A stretch of DNA of 46,194 nucleotides from a virus. Numbering within the stretch: position 1 is the stretch's first letter; every line of letters starts with the position of its first letter. Made by a program: the position numbers and the translations under genes. This document shows positions 624 through 29,581 of this stretch, one piece after another. The notes under the pieces were generated by a model that was given only the letters and a program-made list of their open reading frames with translations, did not search any database and was not told where the DNA came from. The DNA is taken from the IMG/VR virus record IMGVR_UViG_3300006467_000162. One strand, written 5' to 3'.

Positions 624-2063
624 GTGACCAAACCAAGAATCCGTGTTCGCGCTGGCGAAGTGCCGAAATACAAGGCGCAGGCCTATGAGGGCGCTACTCA
701 TGGCCGCCGGGCCACGGGCTGGAATGCCCCGGCCACCGGCCCGAACCGGGCACTCAATTCCTCACTGACCACTCTCCGAAACCGGGCCCGCCAGGGTTTC
801 AGAAACAACCCATGGCTTGAGCGCGGCATCACTCGGAACGTGGTCAACGAGATCGGCACAGGAATCACGCCGCTCTTTGCATCGAGCAACACAGAATTCA
901 ATGACGCCTTGTCCGAGCTCTGGACACCCTGGACTGGCATGGCCTGCCCAGATGGCACGCTGGATTTCTACGGGATGTTGGCACAGGCATGCCGAAGCCG
1001 CCGAAGCGCTGGTGAAGTATTCATCCGGCTGCGCTCCCGCCCGGCTTCATTCGGAATGGCTGTGCCTATCCAGCTGCAGGTGATAGAGCCGGACCATGTT
1101 CCGGAGACGATGAACCGTACCCGGGCCAATGGCAATCGCATCATTGCAGGAATCGAGTTCAACAAACGCGGCCAGCGCGTTGCGTACTGGATGTATCCGG
1201 AGCACCCGCAGGACAACGACGGCATGATCATGGCCGCCAAGGCTCTGCGGATTCCGGCTAACCAAGTGATTCACCACTATTTGCCGCTCCGCCCCGGCCA
1301 AGTCCGTGGCGAGCCCGATGTGGTTCAAGCCCTGCTGCGGGCGAAGACATACGACAGCTACGAAGACAGCGAACTGGTCCGGAAAGAAACCCGGGCACCG
1401 TTCACCGGCTTCCTGCAAAAAGAATACTCCGGCGAGAACGATTGGCAGTATGACCCAATCACCGGCGAACCGGTTGGTGATGATGACCCGTTGCCAGAAA
1501 TCAGCGCCCAACCTGGAACAGTTCTGACCGGTGCAGCTGGTGAGAAGCTGACCCTGTTTGACGGTGACAACACCGGCGCCGGCTATTCCGATTTCCAGCG
1601 GCAGCAATTGCTGGCGGTGGCTGCTGGCACCAAGTCACTTTATGAGCTGATGACCGGTGACTGGAAGAACATCAATGACCGGGTTTACCGGGCGATGATC
1701 AACGAATACCGCCGCGAGATCGAAATGGCCCAGGACCATCTGGCCATCCATCAGGTTTGCGAGCGTGTCGGCTTCTGGTTCACAGATGCCGCGGTTCTGT
1801 CCGGTGCCGTCAGTGCTCCGGGTTACTCGCAACGGTATGACGACTACAACAAGCGTGACTGGCGCACCCAGCGCTGGCCGCACATTCACCCAGAGCAAGA
1901 CGTTAACGCTGTCATCAAGGAGCTGGACAACGATCTGGAAAGCCTGGATGCGGCCGTGGCCAAGCGAGGATATCGCGCCCGCGATGTTCAGCAGGCCAAC
2001 GTTGACGCCCGAAAGCGCAAATCAGAAATGCTCCGTAAGGCGGAGCTCAGCCAAGAGGAATAA
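624..2063 (+). CDS. Portal protein, lambda (gpB) family
   Basis: 479-aa ORF directly after the gpW-like gene and before the protease, in lambda head-module synteny. GTG start follows a G-rich SD. Confidence 0.85.
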   Translation: MTKPRIRVRAGEVPKYKAQAYEGATHGRRATGWNAPATGPNRALNSSLTTLRNRARQGFRNNPWLERGITRNVVNEIGTGITPLFASSNTEFNDALSELWTPWTGMACPDGTLDFYGMLAQACRSRRSAGEVFIRLRSRPASFGMAVPIQLQVIEPDHVPETMNRTRANGNRIIAGIEFNKRGQRVAYWMYPEHPQDNDGMIMAAKALRIPANQVIHHYLPLRPGQVRGEPDVVQALLRAKTYDSYEDSELVRKETRAPFTGFLQKEYSGENDWQYDPITGEPVGDDDPLPEISAQPGTVLTGAAGEKLTLFDGDNTGAGYSDFQRQQLLAVAAGTKSLYELMTGDWKNINDRVYRAMINEYRREIEMAQDHLAIHQVCERVGFWFTDAAVLSGAVSAPGYSQRYDDYNKRDWRTQRWPHIHPEQDVNAVIKELDNDLESLDAAVAKRGYRARDVQQANVDARKRKSEMLRKAELSQEE

Positions 2064-2066
2064 ACC

Positions 2067-3137
2067 ATGTCATGGTTCAAAGCACAGGCTTCCGGTGACC
2101 GGACGGCCAAGGTAGTTATTGACCGGGCCATCGGTTCGGACTGGGCTCCGGACTGGGTGGCCGACTTTACCGGCGAGCAGCCAGCCCGCGAATTCATCGA
2201 GGCAGTTGACGCCCTGGGCGAGCTCGATCGGATTGATCTTGAGATCAACAGCCCAGGTGGTGATGTGGCCTCTGGCGTCCGGATCATGAATTACCTGAAA
2301 AGCCACCAGGCTGAAGTTCACGTAAAGGTCACCGGCATGGCGGCCAGCATCGCTACCGTGATCATGCTGGGCGGTGACACCCGCACCATGGGCGTGGGCA
2401 CCAGCATCATGACCCACCGCGCTTCCACCCTGATGATGGGTTACTACAACCGCAAGGAACTGGAAGATCACGCAACCGGTATCGCTGCCATTGATAGCGC
2501 CATCGTTGATGCATACGTGGCCACCACCGGAAAGACCGCTGAAGAAATCAACGAACTGCTGGACCGTGGCGATGTATACATGGGCGCGGATGAGGCCATT
2601 GAATGGGGCTTCGCCACCGACAAAGACGCCAAGCTGAAAGCAGTTGCCAGTGCCGACCCGGCTCAGTTCCGTCAGCAGATCGAAATGCAGGGCAAGATCC
2701 GGGCGGCTGAAGCCGAAGCGGCTGGCTATAAGGCTCAACTTGAAGCGCAGAACAAATCCCTGGACGAATTGCGTACCGAGCTTGAGGCCTTCAAGAACCC
2801 GGCTGCTGCCAGCGCAGACGAAGTTATTGCGCTGTGTTCTGAGGCTGGCTTCGATTCGCTGGCCGTTTCCATGGCCAAAGAGAAATTGCCGATGGCCACT
2901 GTTCAGGCCCGCCTGAAGCTCGCCGCAGAAGTAAAAGACATTGCAACTGCTGGCGGCCTTGATGCCGATGTGCTGATGAAGCACGTTTCCGACCCCACCC
3001 AGATGCTCCGGACTGCGATCGCAGAGGCGAAAGCCCTCGTTGATCAGGATCTTGAGCATCACCACACGCCCGGCCCGGGCAACAGTAAACAGCCTGACGC
3101 AAGAAAGGCCTATTCCCAACTGAATAACCAAGCGTAA
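2067..3137 (+). CDS. Prohead serine protease (ClpP/S49-like) with C-terminal coiled-coil scaffold-like region
   Basis: Motifs INSPGGDVASG and GMAASIATVIMLGG. The Ala/Glu-rich C-terminal half is as in lambda C/Nu3. GAGGA SD. Confidence 0.85.
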   Translation: MSWFKAQASGDRTAKVVIDRAIGSDWAPDWVADFTGEQPAREFIEAVDALGELDRIDLEINSPGGDVASGVRIMNYLKSHQAEVHVKVTGMAASIATVIMLGGDTRTMGVGTSIMTHRASTLMMGYYNRKELEDHATGIAAIDSAIVDAYVATTGKTAEEINELLDRGDVYMGADEAIEWGFATDKDAKLKAVASADPAQFRQQIEMQGKIRAAEAEAAGYKAQLEAQNKSLDELRTELEAFKNPAAASADEVIALCSEAGFDSLAVSMAKEKLPMATVQARLKLAAEVKDIATAGGLDADVLMKHVSDPTQMLRTAIAEAKALVDQDLEHHHTPGPGNSKQPDARKAYSQLNNQA

Positions 3138-3532: not shown

Positions 3533-4522
3533 ATGGCTACACTGGACATTTTCAATGACGATGCATTCAGCCTTTCGAGCCTGACTGCTGCGATCAACGA
3601 AACCCCTTACGTTCCTGGCCGCCTTGGCGCCCTGGGACTGTTCGACAACGAAGGTATCAACACCACTCATCTGAGCATCGAAAAAGACGGTGCAACGCTG
3701 GCTCTGGTTCCGGCTGCCGATCGTGGCGCTCCTGGAGTGCAGGTCAATGGCGACAAGCGGAAGATGATTCCCTTTAACACGCTGCACCTTCCGGCGGAAT
3801 CCACCATCATGGCGGACGAGATCCAGAACCTTCGGGCTTTTGGTTCAGAGTCAGAGGCAGAGGCTGTTGCCAACTACGTTGCGAAGCGCCAGGCAAAACA
3901 CCGCCGGCAATTGGACGCCACCATGGAGCACCTAAAGATCGGTGCAGTGAAGGGCATCATCATGGACGCTGACGGAACCACGCCGCTGGTGAACACCTTC
4001 ACCGCGTTTGGTATCTCGCAAACCACCCATGATCTGGTCCTTGGCACCGCGGGCACTAAAGTCAGAACGAAGTGCCTTGAAATTCTCGATAAAATCGAGG
4101 ATCAGCTTGGCGGTGTTTCGTTCACATCGGTTCGCGCGGTGCTTGGTCGCACAAAGTTCAAGCAGTTCGTTGATCACCCCGCCGTAACCGAGGCTTACCA
4201 GCGCTGGCAGGACGGCTCCGCCCTCCGCGATGATGTTCGCGGCGGTTTTGAGTTCGGTGGCATTATCTGGGAGCAGTATCGCGGCCAGGTAGGCAGCGTG
4301 AAGTTTGTCGCGGATGATGAAGGCTACGTTTTCCCAGAAGGGGTGCCCGACCTGTTCATCGGCCGATTCGCTCCCGCCAACTACTTTGAAACCGTTGGCA
4401 CTAACGGTCTGCCTTACTACACCAAGATCGAGCCTCTTTCGATGAATAAGGGTGTAAAGGCTGAGTCTCAATCCAACCCGCTGTTCCTTTGCACCAGGCC
4501 AAACGCTGTTGTGAAGGTATAA
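3533..4522 (+). CDS. Major capsid protein (lambda gpE family)
   Basis: 329 aa. N-terminus MATLDIFNDDAFSLSSLTAAINETPYVPGRLG matches the gpE-family pattern. AGGAG SD and a hairpin downstream. Confidence 0.85.
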   Translation: MATLDIFNDDAFSLSSLTAAINETPYVPGRLGALGLFDNEGINTTHLSIEKDGATLALVPAADRGAPGVQVNGDKRKMIPFNTLHLPAESTIMADEIQNLRAFGSESEAEAVANYVAKRQAKHRRQLDATMEHLKIGAVKGIIMDADGTTPLVNTFTAFGISQTTHDLVLGTAGTKVRTKCLEILDKIEDQLGGVSFTSVRAVLGRTKFKQFVDHPAVTEAYQRWQDGSALRDDVRGGFEFGGIIWEQYRGQVGSVKFVADDEGYVFPEGVPDLFIGRFAPANYFETVGTNGLPYYTKIEPLSMNKGVKAESQSNPLFLCTRPNAVVKV

Positions 4523-6003: not shown

Positions 6004-6987
6004 ATGGCAAACGCTGAAAATGCAAAGATCCAATACGAGGGCGGCCAGAGTCAGTCACCAATGGCTGCACTGTCTGATTCTGGAGACGCAACCACATTCG
6101 AATCAGGCGCGGCCCTGTGGTCACGCCGCACTGGCTTTGAGCCGGTGGTTCGTCCTGACGGCCTGATCACTGGCGGCACCATCACGCCAGCTGCTTCTGG
6201 CGATGACAACGCGGTCGATATTTCGGCGGGAACCGCCTATGTTGGCGGCCAGCTGGTCACGTTCTCTGCGGCCACGGATATCACTTGCACCCGTGCCACA
6301 TCCACCAATACGCACATGATCAGCTCCATCACCGTGGATGGCAGTGGCACCGTTGCTGCGGCAGCTGGCACTGGCGGCACTTCATTCAGTGAGAGCCGTG
6401 GCGATGCCGGCGCGCCTCCTCTGGTTGCAGTGACTAAAATCGAGATTGGTCAGGTTCGCCTGCAGGGCACCACCGCCGCCCCTGTTGTCGCTGGTGACGT
6501 GTTCCAGGTGGTTGGCGTGCATCAGGAGCGCTACGACTTCCCGATCTACGAAGTGGACTACCGGAACGGCAACGTGGTGTTCAACTCTGCTCTGCAGAAG
6601 ATCCACACTGGGGCATTGCCCAAGAAAGTGTTCGCCAGCTACGCGGAGCCGATCTTCGCGGACGTTCCGAAAGGCTCCGATTTCGTGCCTTCCGAGACTT
6701 CGCACTCTGTCAGCTCCACCCAGATCTATGGCACCACTTTGGGCTCCACCAGCTCAACGCTGAACCAGTCAACCTTCACCGCCTATCTGAACGATGGCAT
6801 CAGTGACGGCCTGGTGAAGCTGAAGAATGAAATCCTCTGGTTCAAGTTCTTCCCGAACAAATTCCAGAACGGCTACATTCTGGAGCAAGGCAAGTTCGGC
6901 ATCAGCCGTACCTTCCCGGCCGGTGATGAGATTCAGGCATCATGCACCATTTCGCCTGAGTCCGCGGGTGTTGAGGTTACAGCGTAA
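6004..6987 (+). CDS. Major tail protein (putative)
   Basis: 327 aa with a GGAGAG SD. It lies between the terminator-like protein and the tail chaperone. Assigned by synteny only. Confidence 0.5.
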   Translation: MANAENAKIQYEGGQSQSPMAALSDSGDATTFESGAALWSRRTGFEPVVRPDGLITGGTITPAASGDDNAVDISAGTAYVGGQLVTFSAATDITCTRATSTNTHMISSITVDGSGTVAAAAGTGGTSFSESRGDAGAPPLVAVTKIEIGQVRLQGTTAAPVVAGDVFQVVGVHQERYDFPIYEVDYRNGNVVFNSALQKIHTGALPKKVFASYAEPIFADVPKGSDFVPSETSHSVSSTQIYGTTLGSTSSTLNQSTFTAYLNDGISDGLVKLKNEILWFKFFPNKFQNGYILEQGKFGISRTFPAGDEIQASCTISPESAGVEVTA

Positions 6988-15909: not shown

Positions 15910-16218
15910 CTAAGCATCGGAAAAGGTTCCTAGTTCCAGTTGAAGCGTATCGCCAGGCCTTAGATCAAGGTGTTCTCCTTTTCCATCAACCAGTTCTATT
16001 GCGACTTCAGCCTTTGATTCGAAAAGCAGTGCATTCTCCCGAACCATTAGAACCCCATGAAGCTTTTGCGGGCCCTGAATAAGCGTGATCGGTAAGTTGC
16101 CAATCAACGTTTTCCCCGCCTCATCAAAGACAAAGAAGCCATCAGATTTCGGTTCCAATGTAACGCTGGTTTTGTGCAAGCCCGCCAAAAGCTCTGCATA
16201 GTTAAATTTTACGCTCAT
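15910..16218 (-). CDS. Hypothetical protein (cargo between int and attP)
   Basis: 102-aa ORF whose ATG overlaps the int stop (ATGA). Confidence 0.55.
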   Translation of the reverse strand: MSVKFNYAELLAGLHKTSVTLEPKSDGFFVFDEAGKTLIGNLPITLIQGPQKLHGVLMVRENALLFESKAEVAIELVDGKGEHLDLRPGDTLQLELGTFSDA

Positions 16219-17357
16219 TTCCCAAAAACCCCGCTCACATCCAACTCCGCTTTAACACGAACCCACTGCTGTTCGTGCCCCTTCTGGTAATGCTCTGTCA
16301 TCTTCTCGTCAGCGTGCGCCATCAGCGGCTGCACATACCCCTCGTTATCAAAGCCCTGTTTCTTGTATAGCCAGGAGCCCAGCGCCCGGACTTCGTGGAA
16401 GGTTGGCCGCTTCTCCCTGGGCACATCGTCAAATAGACCTGTCTCATCCCGCACGCGCCTGAACTCTGAGCTGAAATGGTTCGGGGTAAGCTGTGACCAG
16501 TGCTGGCGGTCTTTGGCCTTGTTGCGCCTCTCTGGATCTCGGTGAACGATAAACGGGCTGGCGATATCGGAGCGCCTGGCCCGGGAAACAATCTTCGCCA
16601 ACCGCGGGCTTTCGATAATCAGGAAAGCGTGCTCATGTTTTTTGACCTTCTCACGAACTACCTGGAGCGTCCCGGCCTTTTCATCGTAATCTGCAAAGCG
16701 CATGTTGATCACTTCCATCCGGCCCTGCAGTGTAACCAGGCCCAGCTCCATGGCAACCTGCAGCCATTCCGGGGCAATCGCATAAATGGCTTTGAACTGT
16801 TCCAGGGTGAGCCGCTGGCGTTGCTTCTCATAGCCTGACTTCGCATAGGTGGCCCCGGCCGGGTTGGGAATGTCGGACGGATACAGCCCTTTCATCTGCG
16901 CAAACGTGAACAGATCGGTGAGGGTGGTCCGGTGCTTGATGTAGCTGTCCCGCTGGAAGTTGTCATCCAGATATTCAGCCACCGCTTTTACATCGAACGA
17001 TTCCACCAGCATCTGGCCCAGATCCTTTTCAAATCGATTCAGCCTGTAGCCAATCAGCTTCACGGTGCTCGGCGCCAGGTTCTGATCCGGAAGATATTCC
17101 TTCCGATACCGGCCAATCAGGTGGGCCATTGTTTGCTCCGCCGTCCCCAGCACCTGGCCAATGCGATCCGGGTCCTTCAGCAGGATGGCGTTCAGCTGGC
17201 GGGCATCAGCGATTGCCGTGCCCTTGACCGTGCCCAGGCTGTGAAACCGGCCATTGTCCGGACGCCTGTACCGATAATAAGTGACCGCCCCGACCTTGTT
17301 GGTGTATAGGTTCGGGGGAAGATCCGCATTCCTTCGAAGCCGTTTCCGTGGTGCCAT
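16215..17357 (-). CDS. int: Tyrosine integrase, lambda Int type with N-terminal arm-binding domain
   Basis: LPPNLYTNKVGAVTYYRYRRP resembles the lambda Int N-domain. C-terminal HEVRALGSWLY...HYQ carries the catalytic-type motifs. ATG 17357 follows AAGGA and the stop of the upstream ORF. Confidence 0.9.
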   Translation of the reverse strand: MAPRKRLRRNADLPPNLYTNKVGAVTYYRYRRPDNGRFHSLGTVKGTAIADARQLNAILLKDPDRIGQVLGTAEQTMAHLIGRYRKEYLPDQNLAPSTVKLIGYRLNRFEKDLGQMLVESFDVKAVAEYLDDNFQRDSYIKHRTTLTDLFTFAQMKGLYPSDIPNPAGATYAKSGYEKQRQRLTLEQFKAIYAIAPEWLQVAMELGLVTLQGRMEVINMRFADYDEKAGTLQVVREKVKKHEHAFLIIESPRLAKIVSRARRSDIASPFIVHRDPERRNKAKDRQHWSQLTPNHFSSEFRRVRDETGLFDDVPREKRPTFHEVRALGSWLYKKQGFDNEGYVQPLMAHADEKMTEHYQKGHEQQWVRVKAELDVSGVFGK

Positions 17358-17358
17358 A

Positions 17359-17625
17359 TTATCCTTCCGGGCTTTCCGCGACTCGATCGCTGCAGGCTGT
17401 TTCATCCCGATACATCCGGAAGAATCCATATTCCCGCGGATAGTCCTTCCATGATTCGTGAACCCCGCCGCCCATCACTTCCGCCCGGTGAAGCTCGGCA
17501 ACCACAGGGCCATGGCTACGCCTGCCGGCCAGCCAGAGAGCCAGGGCATCTTCTCGACTGAGGCGCCCCTGTAACTTCAGTTCGCGGAAATGCTTCTCAA
17601 AAAGTTCCTGCTCTGCTTTGTTCAA
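17359..17625 (-). CDS. Hypothetical protein between xis and int
   Basis: 88 aa. TTG start lies 5 nt after a perfect AGGAGG. Confidence 0.55.
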   Translation of the reverse strand: MNKAEQELFEKHFRELKLQGRLSREDALALWLAGRRSHGPVVAELHRAEVMGGGVHESWKDYPREYGFFRMYRDETACSDRVAESPEG

Positions 17626-23496: not shown

Positions 23497-24168
23497 TTAT
23501 GACGGTTGTTTCAAGTTTTGTTGAACTACCGAGATCATAACGCCAAGAATGTCGGGCTCATGGCCCAGATCAACGGGCCGGAAATCGGTGTTTGGTGGAA
23601 TAATCTGATAGGTGTCCCGCTTTGCCAGCGCCCCGCTGACGAACGATTCATTGATATAAGCCACCACCAGATCGTTGGGCCCCGGGCGTTCAAAGGGATT
23701 CACCACTACATACATACCTCTAAGTACGCGATCCGATAGCGAGTTATCTTCAACCTGTATTGCGAAACACCCTGGATTCATTTTCCCGGTAGCCAAGACG
23801 GTGGGGAGGTCTGAAGTTTGGAGCTGGCCGTTGGCGTAATCCTTCCATTGCTCGGCATTCACCAGGGGGATGTTGTGCAATTCGACCTGCTGCAGCCTGC
23901 CGTCCTGATCGATGCCCTGGACTTCCCGCATTGGCCCTGTGCCATTCCGAAGCCATTCCGGCCTGACACGATAATACAGTGCCAGCTGCTCGATTTTTTG
24001 TAATGGAATCACATCACCAGTGAACCACTTCCGAACCCCGGCCACGGACATATCAAAGTGTCTGGCCAGATCCGAATACATTCCATAGTGGTGCAGGCCA
24101 GCCGCTTTAGCGGCTTCATTAAGGCGCGATGAGAACGCTTTCTTCTGTAAATCTGTATCAAGTTTCAT
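23497..24168 (-). CDS. cI: CI-like repressor (N-terminal HTH plus S24 LexA-like C-terminal domain)
   Basis: HTH: YSDLARHFDMSVAGVRKWF. C-domain: FAIQVEDNSLSDRVLRGMYVVV...VSGALAKR parallels the S24 GDSM...K motifs. Divergent from the cro-like gene. Confidence 0.8.
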   Translation of the reverse strand: MKLDTDLQKKAFSSRLNEAAKAAGLHHYGMYSDLARHFDMSVAGVRKWFTGDVIPLQKIEQLALYYRVRPEWLRNGTGPMREVQGIDQDGRLQQVELHNIPLVNAEQWKDYANGQLQTSDLPTVLATGKMNPGCFAIQVEDNSLSDRVLRGMYVVVNPFERPGPNDLVVAYINESFVSGALAKRDTYQIIPPNTDFRPVDLGHEPDILGVMISVVQQNLKQPS

Positions 24169-24212
24169 GCCGGGAACTTTATCTCACCCCGATAATTAAA
24201 TCAGGCCAATGG

Positions 24213-24256
24213 TAGTTTCAACTCCGCTTGCAAAGTTTTAACTGCTAGATTAATCT
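24213..24256. promoter_or_regulatory. OR-like region: operators TAGTTTCAACTC and AAGTTTTAACTG plus PR-like promoter (-35 TTGCAA 24228, -10 TAATCT 24251)
   Basis: Two AGTTnnAACT sites 20 bp apart lie between the divergent cI and cro genes. The second fills the PR spacer. Confidence 0.55.
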
Positions 24257-24262
24257 TGCCTT

Positions 24263-24526
24263 ATGACCAGTTTAAAGAAAGCCCACAAGATTCTCGGTTA
24301 CGGCGCGTTCAGCGAGATCGGACGCGCCTGCAATCGCAGCCCTCAAGCCGTGAAGAAATGGTTTGAGATTGGCGTTCTGCCTGAAACCGAGATCATCGAG
24401 GTTTTCGGCCAGCGGAAAACTTCTTATGGCCAGGTAATCGAAGCGCTGACCGGCGGGCAGGTAACGGATGCCCAGCTGCGCCAGGAAAACTTCGAATATC
24501 GCCAATCAAGAAAGTCTGCGGCATGA
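24263..24526 (+). CDS. cro: Cro-like HTH regulator
   Basis: 87 aa. IGRACNRSPQAVKKWFEIGVLPE is a Cro/YdaS-type HTH. It is the first gene of the rightward operon and has no SD, so it is possibly leaderless. Confidence 0.7.
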   Translation: MTSLKKAHKILGYGAFSEIGRACNRSPQAVKKWFEIGVLPETEIIEVFGQRKTSYGQVIEALTGGQVTDAQLRQENFEYRQSRKSAA

Positions 24527-24539
24527 CTCTTTCCTCCAC

Positions 24540-24862
24540 CTGTTTCATTCAGGTTAACGGAAAGATGAGGATTGCAACTTCCCGCTGATGGGGGAAAGGA
24601 ACTGCTCTCGAAAGAGAGCGCATCTGGAAAGGCTCTGAAAGCATCTGCGAGATCGATGCTAGCAAGTAGAGGCGGCGAGGAAGGTGCACATGAATCGTTG
24701 TCGGACCTTGCGACTGCTGTAAGTAGTGAGAGCCGGTGCAACTCCGGACAGAGCCTTTCACAGATGCGGAAAGGGTTGGGAGATCCCGGCCGGCGCATCA
24801 AAGCAGTGAACTTGTAGCAGTACGACCTGGGCCGTGTCGGAAATCTGGCCTGACAAACAGAC
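24540..24862 (+). ncRNA. Candidate structured RNA / leader element downstream of cro (unclassified)
   Basis: No credible ORF. Contains GCTCTC-GAAA-GAGAGC (24604-24619), a 19-bp long-range helix 24619-24637/24749-24768, AGCATC-N9-GATGCT (24640-24660), and the competing helix GATGCG/CGCATC (24763-68/24793-98). Confidence 0.35.
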
Positions 24863-24901
24863 ACAAAAAAGCCCGGCAGGCTACCAACCAAATACCGGGC
24901 T
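24863..24901 (-). terminator. Hairpin aagcccgg-N17-ccgggctt with a T6 run on the minus strand
   Basis: The minus strand reads agcccgg...ccgggcttttttgtg. The plus-strand tail is only tttcg. Confidence 0.4.
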
Positions 24902-24932
24902 TTCGATCAACGATCTAGAGGTAAGCATAACC

Positions 24933-25118
24933 ATGAACGAACTCCACCGCAAGGCCCGAATAATGAAGCTCAGACTGAATGTCTGGCTTCGCTGGCTGGC
25001 CGTCGAGCTTGAGCCAGCCGGTAGTCAAGATTTCCGCCAAATAGCCAGCCGATATGCCGCCGCCAAGGGAGAGCTGAACAGAGCGCTTCTGAAAGAGCGT
25101 GAGGAGGGGCAGGCATGA
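24933..25118 (+). CDS. Small hypothetical protein
   Basis: 61 aa, with ATG after GAGGT. Stop overlaps the next ATG (ATGA). Confidence 0.5.
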   Translation: MNELHRKARIMKLRLNVWLRWLAVELEPAGSQDFRQIASRYAAAKGELNRALLKEREEGQA

Positions 25119-25591
25119 GCGATTACGGCTTTGTCTATGTGATGCACAACTTTGCCATGAACGGCGTTTATAAGATCGGCTTCACAACTAGGTCAGTTTT
25201 TAAGCGGGCGGAAGAGCTATCCGCAGGAGCTGGCGTAGCTGACGATTATTCGCCGGCTTACTATCTGGAAACCTCGGCGGTTCGTGAGCTTGAGTGCATG
25301 GTTCATGCAGATCTTGTTGAGTACCGGATTAACCCGGCGCGCGAGTTTTTTCGATGCCCGCTGAGCATGGCCATCTGGAGTATTCGGAAGAATACCGAAG
25401 ATGGTCTTGCAGAATATATTTCTGATATGGCGCTTGAGGCGCTAAATCCCGGCCAAGTCGATCCCCACAACCCTTTATGGTTCGAAGCATCACTATATCA
25501 CCCTGACCAAGTTGCAGTTTTTTCCCAGGGTCAAGCGCGAACAAATAGCCGCACAAAACTCTTTCAAATTGATGCATCTGGAGGTCAGTGA
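25115..25591 (+). CDS. T5orf172 / GIY-YIG-like domain protein
   Basis: GFVYVMHN..VYKIGFTTRSVFKRAEELS...HADLVEYRINPAREFF matches the T5orf172 (MUG113-like) pattern. Confidence 0.6.
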   Translation: MSDYGFVYVMHNFAMNGVYKIGFTTRSVFKRAEELSAGAGVADDYSPAYYLETSAVRELECMVHADLVEYRINPAREFFRCPLSMAIWSIRKNTEDGLAEYISDMALEALNPGQVDPHNPLWFEASLYHPDQVAVFSQGQARTNSRTKLFQIDASGGQ

Positions 25592-28611: not shown

Positions 28612-28853
28612 ATATTTACTGCTTTAAGTTTGAGTGCGAATGTCCGAACAACCAACAGCGCATTGCGTACCGAGTCGAGATCCGCTCCGCGCAGACCATC
28701 ATGGTTGAGAACATCGCGGGATTCTTCCTGAGCTTCACAGCTGCCTACCAAGAGGACATTGCAGACCAGTCTTATCAGCGCTTTGGAGGGCAGCAAACGA
28801 TCAGCGCTCATCACCACGGCGTCGATATTGAGACTCGGAGGGGCTGGCAATGA
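28608..28853 (+). CDS. Small protein, possible T-fold/QueF-like (weak)
   Basis: 81 aa. FECECPNNQQ...VEIRS...VENIAGFFLSF loosely parallels QueF (CPxTxQPD...ESKSLKLYLxSF). Confidence 0.3.
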   Translation: MNIYCFKFECECPNNQQRIAYRVEIRSAQTIMVENIAGFFLSFTAAYQEDIADQSYQRFGGQQTISAHHHGVDIETRRGWQ

Positions 28854-29581
28854 TTCATTACCACGGATTGCCAGTTACTCCAGCCACAGCCGCCGCAAAG
28901 TTGCTACAGGGCCGCCATGCCTTTGTGTCCTTCATGCACTCGGACCAATTGGAGATTGCCGCCGAGCTTTGCCAGAGCTTCGCGGTGGATAACGGCGCCT
29001 TCACTGCCTGGAAGTCCGGCGAGGCAATCACCGACTGGACGCCATTCTATCAATGGGTAGACGGCCTGAAGTCACATCCCGGCTTTGACTTTGCTGTCAT
29101 TCCGGACGTTATCGACGGTGACGAAGTTGCCAACGATGACCTGATCCGCGAATGGCCACACGAAAAGCACTACTCCGCGCCAGTTTGGCACATGCACGAA
29201 TCCATTGAGCGCTTGTTCGACTTGGCTCACTTCTGGCCGCGTGTCTGCATTGGCAGCTCTGGAGCATTCTCGCAGATTGGCAATGCTCGCTGGTGGGCGC
29301 GAATCAGTGAAGCGCTTAATGCCATCTGTGATGAGCATGGCCGCCCCGTTACTCGATTGCATGGCCTCCGGATGTTGGACCCTGCTGTGTTCACCAAGTT
29401 GCCGTTTGCCAGCGCAGACAGCACGAACGTCGGGCGCAACATTGGTATTGATTCAGCCTGGAGAGGAACTTATCAGCCGCCAAGCAAAGAATGGAGAGCT
29501 GAGTTAATGGCCGCTCGAATCGAATCACACAACAGCGCAGAGCAGTGGAGCCGCGCACCGATTCAGGAGGCTTTAATATGA
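28850..29581 (+). CDS. DpdA-like (TGT-superfamily) DNA transglycosylase candidate
   Basis: Ordered motifs VDNGAF, CIGSSG, LHGLRML and SADSTNVGRN parallel phage DpdA (DSGAF, GVGSVC, LHGFG, SxDSxAW). From memory, not searched. Confidence 0.4.
   Translation: MIHYHGLPVTPATAAAKLLQGRHAFVSFMHSDQLEIAAELCQSFAVDNGAFTAWKSGEAITDWTPFYQWVDGLKSHPGFDFAVIPDVIDGDEVANDDLIREWPHEKHYSAPVWHMHESIERLFDLAHFWPRVCIGSSGAFSQIGNARWWARISEALNAICDEHGRPVTRLHGLRMLDPAVFTKLPFASADSTNVGRNIGIDSAWRGTYQPPSKEWRAELMAARIESHNSAEQWSRAPIQEALI

Follow-up and report, generated by a model that had tools for sequence, protein, structure and literature searches.

The early-right operons of lambdoid phages are a textbook case of control at the level of RNA, through nut, put, tR1 and oop. 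Elsewhere among phages, non-coding RNAs are matured by RNase P, namely the P4 CI RNA (seqA, seqB and seqC) and the P1/P7 C4 antisense RNA (a1b1, a'b' and a2b2). The put RNA consists of two stem-loops, which two adjacent stem-loops of the locus described here resemble (PMC9378689). In the window, the whole 46,194-nt stretch of viral DNA analysed here, positions 24527-24932 are a plus-strand, non-coding, structured and modular RNA element on the early-right (cro) transcript of a lambdoid prophage. Its constant platform is made of three adjacent parts: a hairpin of free sequence (P1), a long helix whose outer 9 bp are fixed (P2), and a bulged hairpin module, GGGUUGGG-N4-CCCGGCC. The platform leads into a conserved tail and a near-invariant hairpin resembling a terminator, after which the next gene has its ribosome-binding site. 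The phage group of the window fills the early-right slot with a different, uncatalogued structured RNA.

The element lies directly 3' of a co-oriented cro-like HTH gene (24263-24526, plus strand, an 87-aa ORF), whose product has a weak YdaS/HTH match in Pfam and is assigned to phrog_35, transcriptional repressor; a cI-like S24 repressor gene (23497-24168, minus strand) diverges from it. The genes around the element in the window are cro, a 61-aa ORF, T5orf172 and replication genes. The order of cro-like gene, element and replication module is constant in the window and in lineages L001/L190, L004, L010, L193 (of the L007 type) and L325; the replication module is O-like or DnaC-like, and the immediately adjacent genes vary between lineages. 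A close relative, L324 (83% identity by replication protein), has no element, which makes the element accessory and early-right expression possible without it. Among GenBank phages, a blastn search in distant mode found no match to 24200-25200. The first-pass annotation had held that the plus strand of the region carries no plausible ORF. Mechanical ORFs do exist, of 81 aa (24572-24817, plus strand) and 155 aa (24424-24891, minus strand); neither has a Pfam match, both are destroyed in relatives by indels and wholesale replacement, and none is conserved.

That the region is structured was borne out by folding: its minimum free energy (MFE) on the plus strand is -147.9 kcal/mol (z -2.82), which none of 100 shuffles equaled. 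The minus strand, too, has a good fold (z -2.5), and the whole spacer of L325 folds no better than its shuffles (z -0.8). The main helices are present in five related prophage lineages, each time between a cro-like gene and replication genes, the window family comprising only three or four independent lineages. Orientation relative to transcription is constant, there is a single copy per genome or locus, and in L004, L007 and L010 the unit of P1, P2 and module sits in differing flanks. Nor does the element belong to any catalogued RNA family, as had been surmised: Rfam 15 (4227 models) gave nothing for the window at gathering thresholds, and its matches over the window and 11 loci at those thresholds, and over the region and the L001 element at E<=10, were all at chance level, a microRNA, the IS1222 frameshift element and a snoRNA among them. 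ARAGORN found no tRNA or tmRNA in the window.

The 5' leader (24527-24603) is predicted by MFE to form two small hairpins, at around 24538-24553 and around 24579-24597 (CUUCCCGC-UGAU-GGGGGAAAG). The second is also found in L001, there as a perfect CCCCC-UGAU-GGGGG; the leader is missing from L004, L007 and L325 and is therefore outside the core. P1 (24604-24619), read from the sequence as GCUCUC-GAAA-GAGAGC and abutting P2, has the coordinates and pairing first given for it, and relatives keep it as a hairpin. At its position L001 has GCCCUG-GGAG-CAGGGC, L004 and L007 have GACUGC-CGUAA-GCAGUC, and L325 has AGCUGC-CGUAA-GCAGCU. P1 thus takes three unrelated sequences, every one a hairpin, with neither loop nor stem sequence kept; among rows that align in register, two pairs show double changes. 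The suggestion that P1 is boxB-like fails on this point, because its GAAA loop becomes GGAG or CGUAA in relatives and the hairpin alone persists.

P2 is the 19-bp helix with one bulged A previously read between 24619-24637 and 24749-24768, and both the sequence and the MFE structure confirm it. The first 6-8 nt of its 5' strand (CGCAUCUGGAAAGGCUCUG) constitute a segment that we call X1, and the last 6-8 nt of its 3' strand (CAGAGCCUUUCaCAGAUGCG) a segment X', common to two mutually exclusive helices. No relative departs from the outer 9 bp, and the compensatory changes fall in the inner part. Over four sequences 20 pairs are kept, with three double compensatory changes, one one-sided change and none broken, a covariation that represents essentially one evolutionary event.

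P2 encloses a variable cargo (24638-24748), which in the window is a multi-hairpin domain of about 110 nt with four hairpins (24640-60; 24662-24711; 24713-27; 24733-47) in the MFE and centroid structures. The pairings first noticed there, AGCATC-N9-GATGCT (24640-60), AAGGT/ACCTT (24681-85 and 24705-09) and CCGG-N7-CCGG (24733-47), are all present. The last of these, CCGG-UGCAACU-CCGG, has a 7-nt loop that may be read as T-loop-like, on a hairpin that would stack on P2; in a search of viral contigs, its 18-mer occurred in one other contig, unrelated. The same frame carries three different cargos, one of them nearly empty. In L001, L004, L007 and L010 the cargo is a different domain, a tRNA-like acceptor/T-arm minihelix (GUGAUUU..GGCGG-UUCGACU-CCGCC-AAAUCAC, then G-CCA) that covaries between L001 and L004, and in L325 P2 closes an 11-nt loop only. 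L001, L007 and L011 have tRNA-like units with CCA adjoining the module, and L182 has a true tRNA inserted. A tRNA-like unit of 68 nt, inserted in L001 at the equivalent of around 24853/54, scores 25 bits with the tRNA-Sec model (E 0.009), where the gathering score is 47. In the window the cargo has no NCCA, no 12-bp acceptor/T stack (7+5-bp geometry) and no anticodon-like loop, the first two of which make it a poor RNase P substrate on paper, and it matches none of the Rfam tRNA, Y RNA and YrlA models, nor anything in ARAGORN. A pseudoknot had been proposed between cargo and tail. The complementarity is there (24713-24 with 24810-21, 83%), but its 10 bp with two G-U pairs are at chance level (about 0.5 expected in a 130-nt by 70-nt comparison) and without comparative support; unrestricted duplex folding was uninformative.

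The conserved hairpin module, GGGUUGGG-AGAU-CCCGGCC (24773-24791), is defined by a pattern search, by the relatives and by its strand-specific fold. Its upper stem (24774-80 with 24785-91) contains two tandem U-G pairs, and in window-type relatives it is invariant bar one G-C to G-U change in L325. It folds locally at -21.2 kcal/mol (z -3.7) on the plus strand versus -13.0 kcal/mol (z -0.96) on the minus strand. Its pattern, exact or loop-degenerate, occurs in more than 120 viral contigs versus 13 for a reversed control matched in composition and hairpin, an enrichment of at least 9-fold. A covariance model of the module (R1), built from 11 sequences with the window among them, scores 24756-24806 at 50.9 bits and, with filters off, finds this one copy in the 46 kb, the next best match scoring 11.5 bits (E 0.2); there is no second copy, for example in the leftward operon. 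The first-pass annotation did not pick out this hairpin, the most informative part of the element, or its wide distribution.

Elsewhere the module lies directly 3' of major-capsid genes, with terminators following, and it also opens sRNA-like units, comes after the promoter in a capsid 5' UTR, stands just 5' of tRNA genes, and occurs inside terminators and inside tmRNAs; in phages it accompanies tRNA arrays and tmRNAs. The copies in phage two-piece tmRNAs have the consensus GGRUUGRG-N4-CYCGGYC, are preceded by another hairpin and UA, and lie about 20 nt 5' of the resume codon; they show G-C to A-U covariation and mostly keep the tandem U-G pairs. Measured against the Rfam consensus the hairpin is an insert in these RNAs, and we therefore regard it as a shared module and not as evidence for homology of the whole RNA. 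That it keeps 15 specified bases and the tandem U-G pairs across unrelated phages suggests a specific partner, and its presence in very different phages, even in their tmRNAs, points to a common one. A metagenome scan with the pattern GATGCG..module returned the known three types, one new three-way-junction RNA (L182) and coding matches, and nothing else. The 54 matches of the exact 19-mer in reference genomes were mostly Actinomycetota coding sequence (the NUDIX 'WGWEIPAG' motif) and were discarded. The hairpin sequence, as a text string, had no match in a literature search.

The window element itself is not a tmRNA. At E<=10 there is no Rfam tmRNA match, ARAGORN calls none, and there is neither an alanine-type (G3-U70) acceptor stem nor a CCA; P2 starts with C-G, G-C and C-G pairs and has GAAA 3' of it. 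A tag-like frame, GCA GUG AAC UUG UAG, lies 12 nt 3' of the module, and L001 has GCA..GCG AAC UUG UAG UAG; L007 has no equivalent. The peptides, AVNL and ATMVANL, are atypical tags, and the acceptor end is absent. A glutamine riboswitch has been reported beside a phage tmRNA (PMC9004378); neither the tmRNA locus nor the window matches the Rfam glnA or Downstream-peptide models.

The same X' segment that closes P2 can complete the module. An alternative pairing of GATGCG (24763-68) had been proposed, and it exists, although its partner, segment X3 (CGCAUC), is at 24794-24799 and not at 24793-98, one base to the left. This pairing, identified by local MFE, by RNAalifold and by the register of other families, is the lower stem of the module. 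It forms part of the -21.2 kcal/mol local MFE structure, which takes up 93% of the ensemble; RNAalifold predicts it on three lineages; and it has the same register as a covarying lower stem in 10 other sequence families. In most other module contexts where a closing stem was found, it is this pairing that forms the stem. In the lower-stem alignment, whose sequences were picked after their pairing had been seen, it is 84% paired, with double changes in 7 of its 8 pairs, versus at most 54% in slid controls. Mutually exclusive folds therefore do exist, since GAUGCG either closes P2 or makes the lower stem with CGCAUC. The duplication of GCATCTG is likewise real: the window has three segments, CGCATCTG (24619-26), CAGATGCG (24761-68) and CGCATC (24794-99), plus GCATCTG at 24641-47 and an X-like copy at 25077-94, just 5' of the ribosome-binding site of the next gene there. 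The X...X'...X layout recurs, with other sequences and upstream helices of 12-19 bp, in L003, L182, L069, L127, L098 and L078, where at most 1 of 100 shuffles was as good and all three segments covary. In the window, the 19-bp P2 is much more stable than the 6-bp lower stem, so that a single state would be expected absent cleavage or a bound factor.

Downstream of the module, the conserved tail (24800-24853, AAAGCAGUGAACUUGUAG..) contains a hairpin, GGCC-N13-GGCC, at 24830-50, and shares GAACUUGU among the window, L325, L001, L004 and L010. A near-invariant block follows (24854-24904), identical in the window and L001 and with one change in L325 despite diverged flanks. It contains the terminator-like hairpin AAAGCCCGG-N18-CCGGGCUUU (24868-24903), which on the plus strand has a 9-bp stem, an 18-nt loop and U3 (-14.3 kcal/mol) and on the minus strand an extended stem and U6 (-23.5 kcal/mol), where it is listed as a terminator-like site. 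It looks like a leftward or bidirectional terminator and would be weak in the plus direction; a promoter scan and inspection by eye found no convincing leftward promoter to go with it. The last stretch (24905-24932) is a partly conserved spacer with the ribosome-binding site AGAGGU (24917-22) of the next gene, whose ATG is at 24933. The GAGGUAA region is kept in the window, L001 and L325, and the gene 3' of it differs (61-aa ORF, 69-aa ORF, HNH endonuclease).

What could such an element do? We lean, tentatively, toward an element that acts in cis within the early-right transcript, through processing and conformation, and serves at the same time as a platform for tRNA-like cargo. The platform would be a punctuation mark in cis, for processing and conformation, between cro and the replication genes. 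During transcription, GAUGCG (24763-68) would close P2 first. Should P2 then come open or be cleaved, whether by RNase P or RNase E at a tRNA-like cargo or otherwise, the same six bases would pair with CGCAUC (24794-99) and complete the module as lower stem, 5' bulge and upper stem. That would leave the cro message capped at its 3' end by P1 and the downstream message capped at its 5' end by the completed module, and the two states would set RNA survival or read-through past the 24868-24903 hairpin into the replication genes. The cargo would be a passenger, expressed via the platform as a stable tRNA-like RNA. The contexts of the module behind capsid genes, at the start of sRNA-like units, in a capsid 5' UTR and before tRNA genes would suit such capping; its occurrence inside tmRNAs, where capping of ends would make no sense, stands against it.

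A further proposal, doubtful but worth stating, puts the weight on recognition. The module, with its NNG bulge and U-G closing pair, might be an undescribed and widely shared motif that a conserved cellular or phage factor recognizes, and the window element and the three-way-junction RNAs might together form a new switchable class. In such a class, the sensor or cargo helix would hide the lower stem of the module and then free it, and this conditional display would control early expression or the fate of the RNA.

It is possible, though we think it rather unlikely, that the RNA itself is the product: the cargo held by P2 would be released as a stable trans-acting tRNA mimic, which might act, for instance, as a scaffold in the manner of Y RNA or as a decoy for host nucleases directed at tRNA or for other factors that bind tRNA, with P1 and the module merely flanking it. 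The T-loop-like hairpin stacked on P2 in the window would fit, as do the covarying L001-type minihelix with G-CCA, the tRNA-like units and the true tRNA in or beside the related elements, and the general company of the module with tRNA arrays and tmRNAs. Turnover of the cargo and an accessory distribution would also suit a locus of the anti-defense type. But L325 keeps the whole platform around an essentially empty P2, so that the platform must have a role without cargo, and the window cargo has neither the CCA end and anticodon-like loop nor the model matches of a tRNA, Y RNA or YrlA.

An unlikely reading is control of the P4 CI or P1/P7 C4 type, in which a processed RNA bearing X', with the module at its flank, would pair with the X copies upstream and downstream on nascent early transcripts and cause premature termination or block expression of the replication genes. 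The three-segment layout, recurring with covariation in other families, is what suggests it, together with the place of the element between the early promoter and the replication genes, a terminator-like hairpin about 70 nt 3' of X3, tRNA-like features that could recruit RNase P, and the X-like copy at 25077-94. However, the C4 covariance model has no match in the window at gathering thresholds or at E<=10, X3 is just 6 nt long, and the downstream hairpin is a poor plus-strand terminator. X and X' lie in one stable helix, so that action in trans would need processing, and a conventional cI/cro pair is present, which leaves no need for immunity by RNA.

We consider it improbable that the element is a site of processive antitermination like nut or put, at which the nascent RNA, with or without an N-like protein, modifies RNA polymerase so that terminators are read through. 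The position is that of nutR or putR, two adjacent stem-loops are present as in the put RNA (PMC9378689), and no N-like gene was noticed. But without conservation of its loop (GAAA in the window, GGAG in L001, CGUAA in L004, L007 and L325) or its stem sequence, P1 is not a boxB. The boxA-like UGCUCUC (compare CGCUCUUA) is confined to the window, where it overlaps P1; relatives have lost it. In HK022, the cro-cII spacer with its flanks, which include the put region, gave no match to the module at up to 3 mismatches, and no Rfam family matches. The single copy of the module in the window, with none in the leftward operon by the unfiltered covariance model, the contexts at capsid-gene ends and inside terminators and tmRNAs, and the absence of the element from L324 all speak against such a site.

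Slightly less credible still is a cassette acting at the level of DNA, mobile or recombinational, MITE-like or a mosaic linker, perhaps spread with neighboring homing-endonuclease-like genes, whose helices would be by-products and whose RNA would have no function. Cargo is indeed swapped between identical boundaries, the P1-P2-module unit occurs in differing flanks, a T5orf172 gene (window) or an HNH gene (L325) lies just downstream, and 24854-24904 is near-identical among diverged phages. A MITE bounded by the long inverted repeat had been suggested at the outset, and what survives of that idea is the swappable insert inside the helix. P1, P2 and the lower stem are kept paired by compensatory changes, and the conserved tandem U-G pairs and plus-strand-only folding of the module point to RNA. 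There is one copy per genome in constant orientation to transcription and no target-site duplication, the only flanking direct repeats being the X copies, which covary with X'. Finally, the idea that nothing more is present than chance hairpins in a GC-rich spacer, or a small protein gene that is decayed or was never annotated, is hardly tenable. One could cite for it mechanical ORFs of 60-155 aa on both strands, the good fold of the minus strand and the poor one of the L325 spacer, but the ORFs are Pfam-negative and broken in relatives, P1, P2 and the lower stem covary, and the motif is enriched over its reversed control.

Candidate partners of the module are a nuclease, RNA polymerase, the ribosome or a phage protein, and naming one would explain a recurrent feature of phage transcripts. 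The conserved two-state layout is a testable natural example of an RNA switch. With its exchangeable tRNA-like cargo, the element hints at how phages could acquire and express tRNA mimics, which bears on host defenses that target tRNA. The R1 model and the module pattern also provide a new search handle for phage non-coding RNAs.

Compared with described systems, the element combines features of several. Like lambda nutR and HK022 put, an RNA of about 70 nt with copies downstream of both early promoters, it is part of the PR transcript, between cro and a terminator-like hairpin, and its adjacent stem-loops would fold once transcribed; unlike them, it conserves neither boxA nor boxB, is present in one copy, and carries a hairpin that occurs in many non-early contexts. 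With P4 CI and P1/P7 C4 it shares a non-coding RNA in an early operon, 5' of replication or antirepressor genes, with tRNA-like features and, as a resemblance of layout only, a middle segment complementary to upstream and downstream copies on the same transcript. It differs in that the segments of the window are short, with 6-9 nt fixed, the 19-bp helix buries one pair of them, and the switch is an ordinary cI/cro one. The plant mitochondrial t-elements, mascRNA and the YrlA/Y RNAs have, like this element, a long closing helix, a multi-branch domain and a last arm that is T-loop-like, and relatives of the window carry an acceptor/T minihelix with NCCA. The best model match, however, is to mascRNA at 18 bits and solely on the separate tRNA-like insert of L001, and bacterial Y RNA and YrlA have no match at E<=10 in the window or the L001 element, nor is rsr (Ro) or rtcB among the genes adjoining the element in the window. 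From this likeness, a tRNA-like element could plausibly give RNase P or RNase Z a point of entry, or divert proteins as a decoy. Phage two-piece (permuted) tmRNAs carry the same hairpin as the window element. Lastly, RNase III hairpins of the T7 R1.1 type and 5'- or 3'-stabilizing hairpins share the plan of lower stem, asymmetric bulge and upper stem, and a placement between cistrons, after highly expressed genes or at RNA ends; those hairpins are not conserved in sequence, whereas the module keeps its 15 specified bases.

Our comparisons show that the spacer between the cro-like gene and the replication genes (24527-24932) holds a conserved plus-strand RNA structure, organized as platform and cargo, in a fixed slot of the early-right operon, and that it includes a recurrent hairpin module with a covarying lower stem and an alternative pairing. 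The window is a temperate lambdoid phage or prophage, with an integrase (16215-17429, minus strand), a cI-like S24 repressor (23497-24168, minus) and, divergent from the latter, the cro-like HTH gene (24263-24526, plus). The element is followed by a 61-aa ORF (24933-25118), a gene for a T5orf172 (GIY-YIG-clan) protein (25115-25591), an O-like replication initiator, and a DnaC/IstB-like loader. A gammaproteobacterial host is probable; the portal protein shares just 40-46% identity with Vibrio, Pseudomonas, and Aeromonas phage proteins. Further along, a 243-aa protein (28850-29581) matches phrog_887, "queuine tRNA-ribosyltransferase" (E 5e-75); we take it to be, probably, a DpdA-type 7-deazaguanine DNA-modification enzyme.

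The 406-nt spacer has a minimum free energy of -147.9 kcal/mol (z -2.8), which none of 100 shuffles equals. Since a good fold is predicted for the minus strand too (z -2.5), fold energy alone cannot assign the strand. The hairpin at 24773-91, however, is predicted at -21.2 kcal/mol on the plus strand (z -3.7) versus -13.0 on the minus (z -0.96), and its two U-G pairs become A-C mismatches if read on the opposite strand; through this hairpin, the predicted folding places the element on the plus strand. The pairings listed in the first-pass annotation were all found where it had placed them except for an alternative partner, CGCATC, which is present but lies at 24794-99 and not 24793-98. A pseudoknot that it had also proposed involves complementarity at chance level.

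Relatives were located by protein-anchored and pattern-anchored scans, and identical copies were grouped. Five further phage lineages carry the element: L001 (the same as L005, L185, and L190), L004, L010 (the same as L183), L007 (the same as L009, L189, and L193), and L325. The metagenome contigs that carry L185 (830 kb) and L190 (545 kb) are presumably chromosomal. In every relative the element lies 3′ of a cro-like gene and 5′ of replication genes, with varying small flanking genes. The element is accessory: it is missing from L324, a close relative whose replication protein is 83% identical to the window's. In L324 the cro-to-replication interval (1378-3004) contains a 78-aa ORF, a 62-aa ORF, a spacer of ~240 nt, and a 236-aa protein whose translation reads as Rha/antirepressor-like. 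The slot is a hotspot of module exchange. Between the element and the replication initiator, the window has its T5orf172 gene and L325 an HNH endonuclease (2208-3001); homing-endonuclease-like genes may travel with, or beside, the RNA-element cassette.

Comparison of the relatives divides the region into platform and cargo. In the platform, hairpin P1 (24604-19) abuts helix P2 (24619-37 with 24749-68) and is free in both stem sequence and loop, with the variants GCUCUC-GAAA-GAGAGC, GCCCUG-GGAG-CAGGGC, GACUGC-CGUAA-GCAGUC, and AGCUGC-CGUAA-GCAGCU. The outer nine pairs of P2 are invariant (CGCAUCUGG with CC-N-CAGAUGCG), and the inner pairs vary by compensatory change: in an alignment with the interior swapped for a T6 linker, three of 20 pairs are changed on both sides, one on one side, and none is broken. 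The third hairpin (24773-91) is GGGUUGGG-AGAU-CCCGGCC.

The cargo is the interior of P2. In the window it comprises 110 nt and four hairpins, the last of which, CCGG-UGCAACU-CCGG, has a T-loop-like 7-nt loop. L001, L004, L007, and L010 have a different domain at this place. As its last arm, the L001-type cargo has a classic acceptor/T-arm minihelix (GUGAUUU ... GGCGG-UUCGACU-CCGCC-AAAUCAC, then G-CCA), from which that of L004 differs by one compensatory change, G-C to U-A, and by one A-U to G-U. The P2 of L325 closes directly on an 11-nt loop as a simple hairpin. The platform therefore occurs without cargo, and the cargo is an insert in the apical P2 loop. L001 has a further tRNA-like insert of 68 nt (3574-3641) between the element tail and the conserved hairpin block, with a 7-bp acceptor stem, mini D-arm, anticodon-like loop CUCCAAA, T-arm, and 3′ G-CCA; it scores 25 bits on the tRNA-Sec model, and ARAGORN called no tRNA in it. 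In L007 (reverse strand), a second P2-type helix (AUCUGGAAGG ... CUUUCCAGAUGCG), ~110-200 nt 3′ of the module (2390-2408), holds a tRNA-Ala-like unit (GGGGUGA.., G3-U70, T-arm GAGG-UUCGAUU-CCUC, 3′ end ACCA). The AUCUGG/CCAGAU sheath may serve more generally to hold tRNA-like inserts.

The third hairpin is the recurrent module. Its exact 19-mer was found at 11 loci on viral contigs, of which 9 are distinct and two were counted twice; a free-loop pattern, HGGGTTGGGNNNNCCCGGCCG, matches at least 120 loci, versus 13 for a reversed pattern of equal composition and hairpin potential; most loops are RNNU. Such pattern searches are contaminated because NUDIX-type genes of many Actinomycetota (most of L013-L066) contain the 19-mer in frame, encoding ..WGWEIPAG.., a coding coincidence. 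Permuted (two-piece) tmRNAs from tRNA-rich phages make up about a third of the free-loop matches listed; in them the module sits 3′ of the hairpin in the PK1 position, ~20 nt 5′ of the resume codon, and the Rfam models tmRNA_permuted and beta_tmRNA align it as inserted sequence. In this family it is present throughout and covaries (GGRUUGRG / CYCGGYC), with the two tandem U-G pairs mostly retained. The two-piece tmRNAs of L070 (5541-5950) and about 40 further viral loci all have the 19-nt hairpin, with tags such as ANDEQFALAA. Elsewhere the module lies directly 3′ of major-capsid genes and 5′ of a terminator, in the apical portion of a terminator, in a capsid 5′ UTR just 3′ of the promoter, 5-10 nt 5′ of tRNA genes, and at the 5′ end of sRNA-like units, one of which adjoins hsdR in Rhodanobacter. 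In L030 (Rhodanobacter spathiphylli, 6310-6400) and L037 (4828-4920), a ~75-nt chromosomal unit of small hairpin, module, and intrinsic terminator lies beside the beginning of a gene resembling a type I restriction R subunit; a PIN-domain protein and one of 277 aa are encoded 3′ of it, a defence-island-like context.

In most non-tmRNA families for which a closing stem was found, the module takes one and the same extended shape, in which the conserved upper stem stands on a 5′ NNG bulge, a U-G closing pair, and a lower stem whose sequence is free. In a gapless alignment of 11 families, whose rows were picked after their pairing was seen, the lower stem is 84% paired with both-side changes in seven of eight pairs, and slid controls reach at most 54%. 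The window, where a covariance-model search with filters off found one module copy only, has GAUGCG (24763-68) with CGCAUC (24794-99) in the same register.

That GAUGCG (X′) also belongs to the 3′ strand of P2. In the resulting layout, X is followed by a long helix whose end is X′, then by an optional small hairpin, the module, and a second X. Three-way-junction RNAs of unrelated sequence (L003, L182, L069, L127, L098, and L078) repeat this layout, with upstream helices of 12-19 bp (at most 1 in 100 shuffles as good). Because X′ and its two partners change together, both pairings appear to be maintained. This dual pairing is the strongest clue to mechanism, hinting that the complete module form is available solely with the long helix opened or cut. 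The ribosome-binding site of the T5orf172 gene is closely preceded by AACAGAGCGCTTCTGAAA (25077-25094), which has 83% identity to the P1/P2 junction (24612-29) and, judged by sequence, could be an extra target copy of X, or chance. The sRNA-like units (L003, L032 from Massilia, L069, L117, L127, L098, L144, L157, L158, and L182), a family absent from Rfam, have the order long helix, three-way junction (X′-UYAA-small GCG hairpin-UA-module-G-X), C/U-rich GUCUCCUCC, hairpin, and intrinsic terminator; the C/U-rich stretch looks like an anti-Shine-Dalgarno. A complete tRNA is inserted 3′ of the junction in L182, and a tRNA-Pro lies there in L117.

The tail 3′ of the module (..GAACUUGU..) is shared among relatives. 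Beyond it, a 51-nt block (24854-24904) is matched exactly by L001 and almost exactly by L325, with diverging adjacent sequence; 3′ of the block, the ribosome-binding site is conserved and the gene after it is different. The block's hairpin, AAAGCCCGG-N18-CCGGGCUUU (24868-24903), is predicted at -23.5 kcal/mol on the minus strand versus -14.3 on the plus, has a U6 tract on the minus only, and by these predictions looks like a leftward terminator; a search for a leftward promoter found none. Its loop contains CCAACC, complementary to GGUUGG in the conserved hairpin.

We infer, tentatively, that the platform punctuates the transcript in cis, through processing and conformational change, at the boundary between cro and the replication genes. 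After cleavage, P1 and the completed module would be end-capping hairpins. The tRNA-like cargo would either draw RNase P or RNase E or be carried along and made as a stable tRNA mimic. Taken together, these steps make up the leading reading, at somewhat less than an even chance. It is possible, with distinctly lower probability, that the cargo RNA itself is the point; in favour, the L001-type cargo ends in a tRNA-like arm, and against it, L325 has the platform alone. A P4/C4-like antisense mechanism seems unlikely: no C4/CI model matches the element, although its X...X′...X layout resembles that of those systems. Antitermination of the nut/put type is quite improbable. P1 had been read as nut/boxB-like, and nut is ruled out because the P1 loop and boxA-like bases vary among relatives; put is ruled out by the single copy and by the lack of similarity to the HK022 put region. 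Less probable again is a cassette acting at the DNA level; the MITE initially suggested is ruled out by the single copy, the compensatory changes, and the absent target-site duplication. Chance or coding is very improbable, the mechanical ORFs in the spacer being unconserved among relatives and matching nothing in a family search.

The element is not a tmRNA or tRNA, no Rfam 15 family matches it, and a literature text search for the hairpin sequence returned no paper containing it. RNAs of this general kind, structured and either regulatory or stable, are known from phage early operons, and tRNA-like modules are known too; the element family and its module appear undescribed, and the module with its conditional display might, at a modest probability, be a new class.
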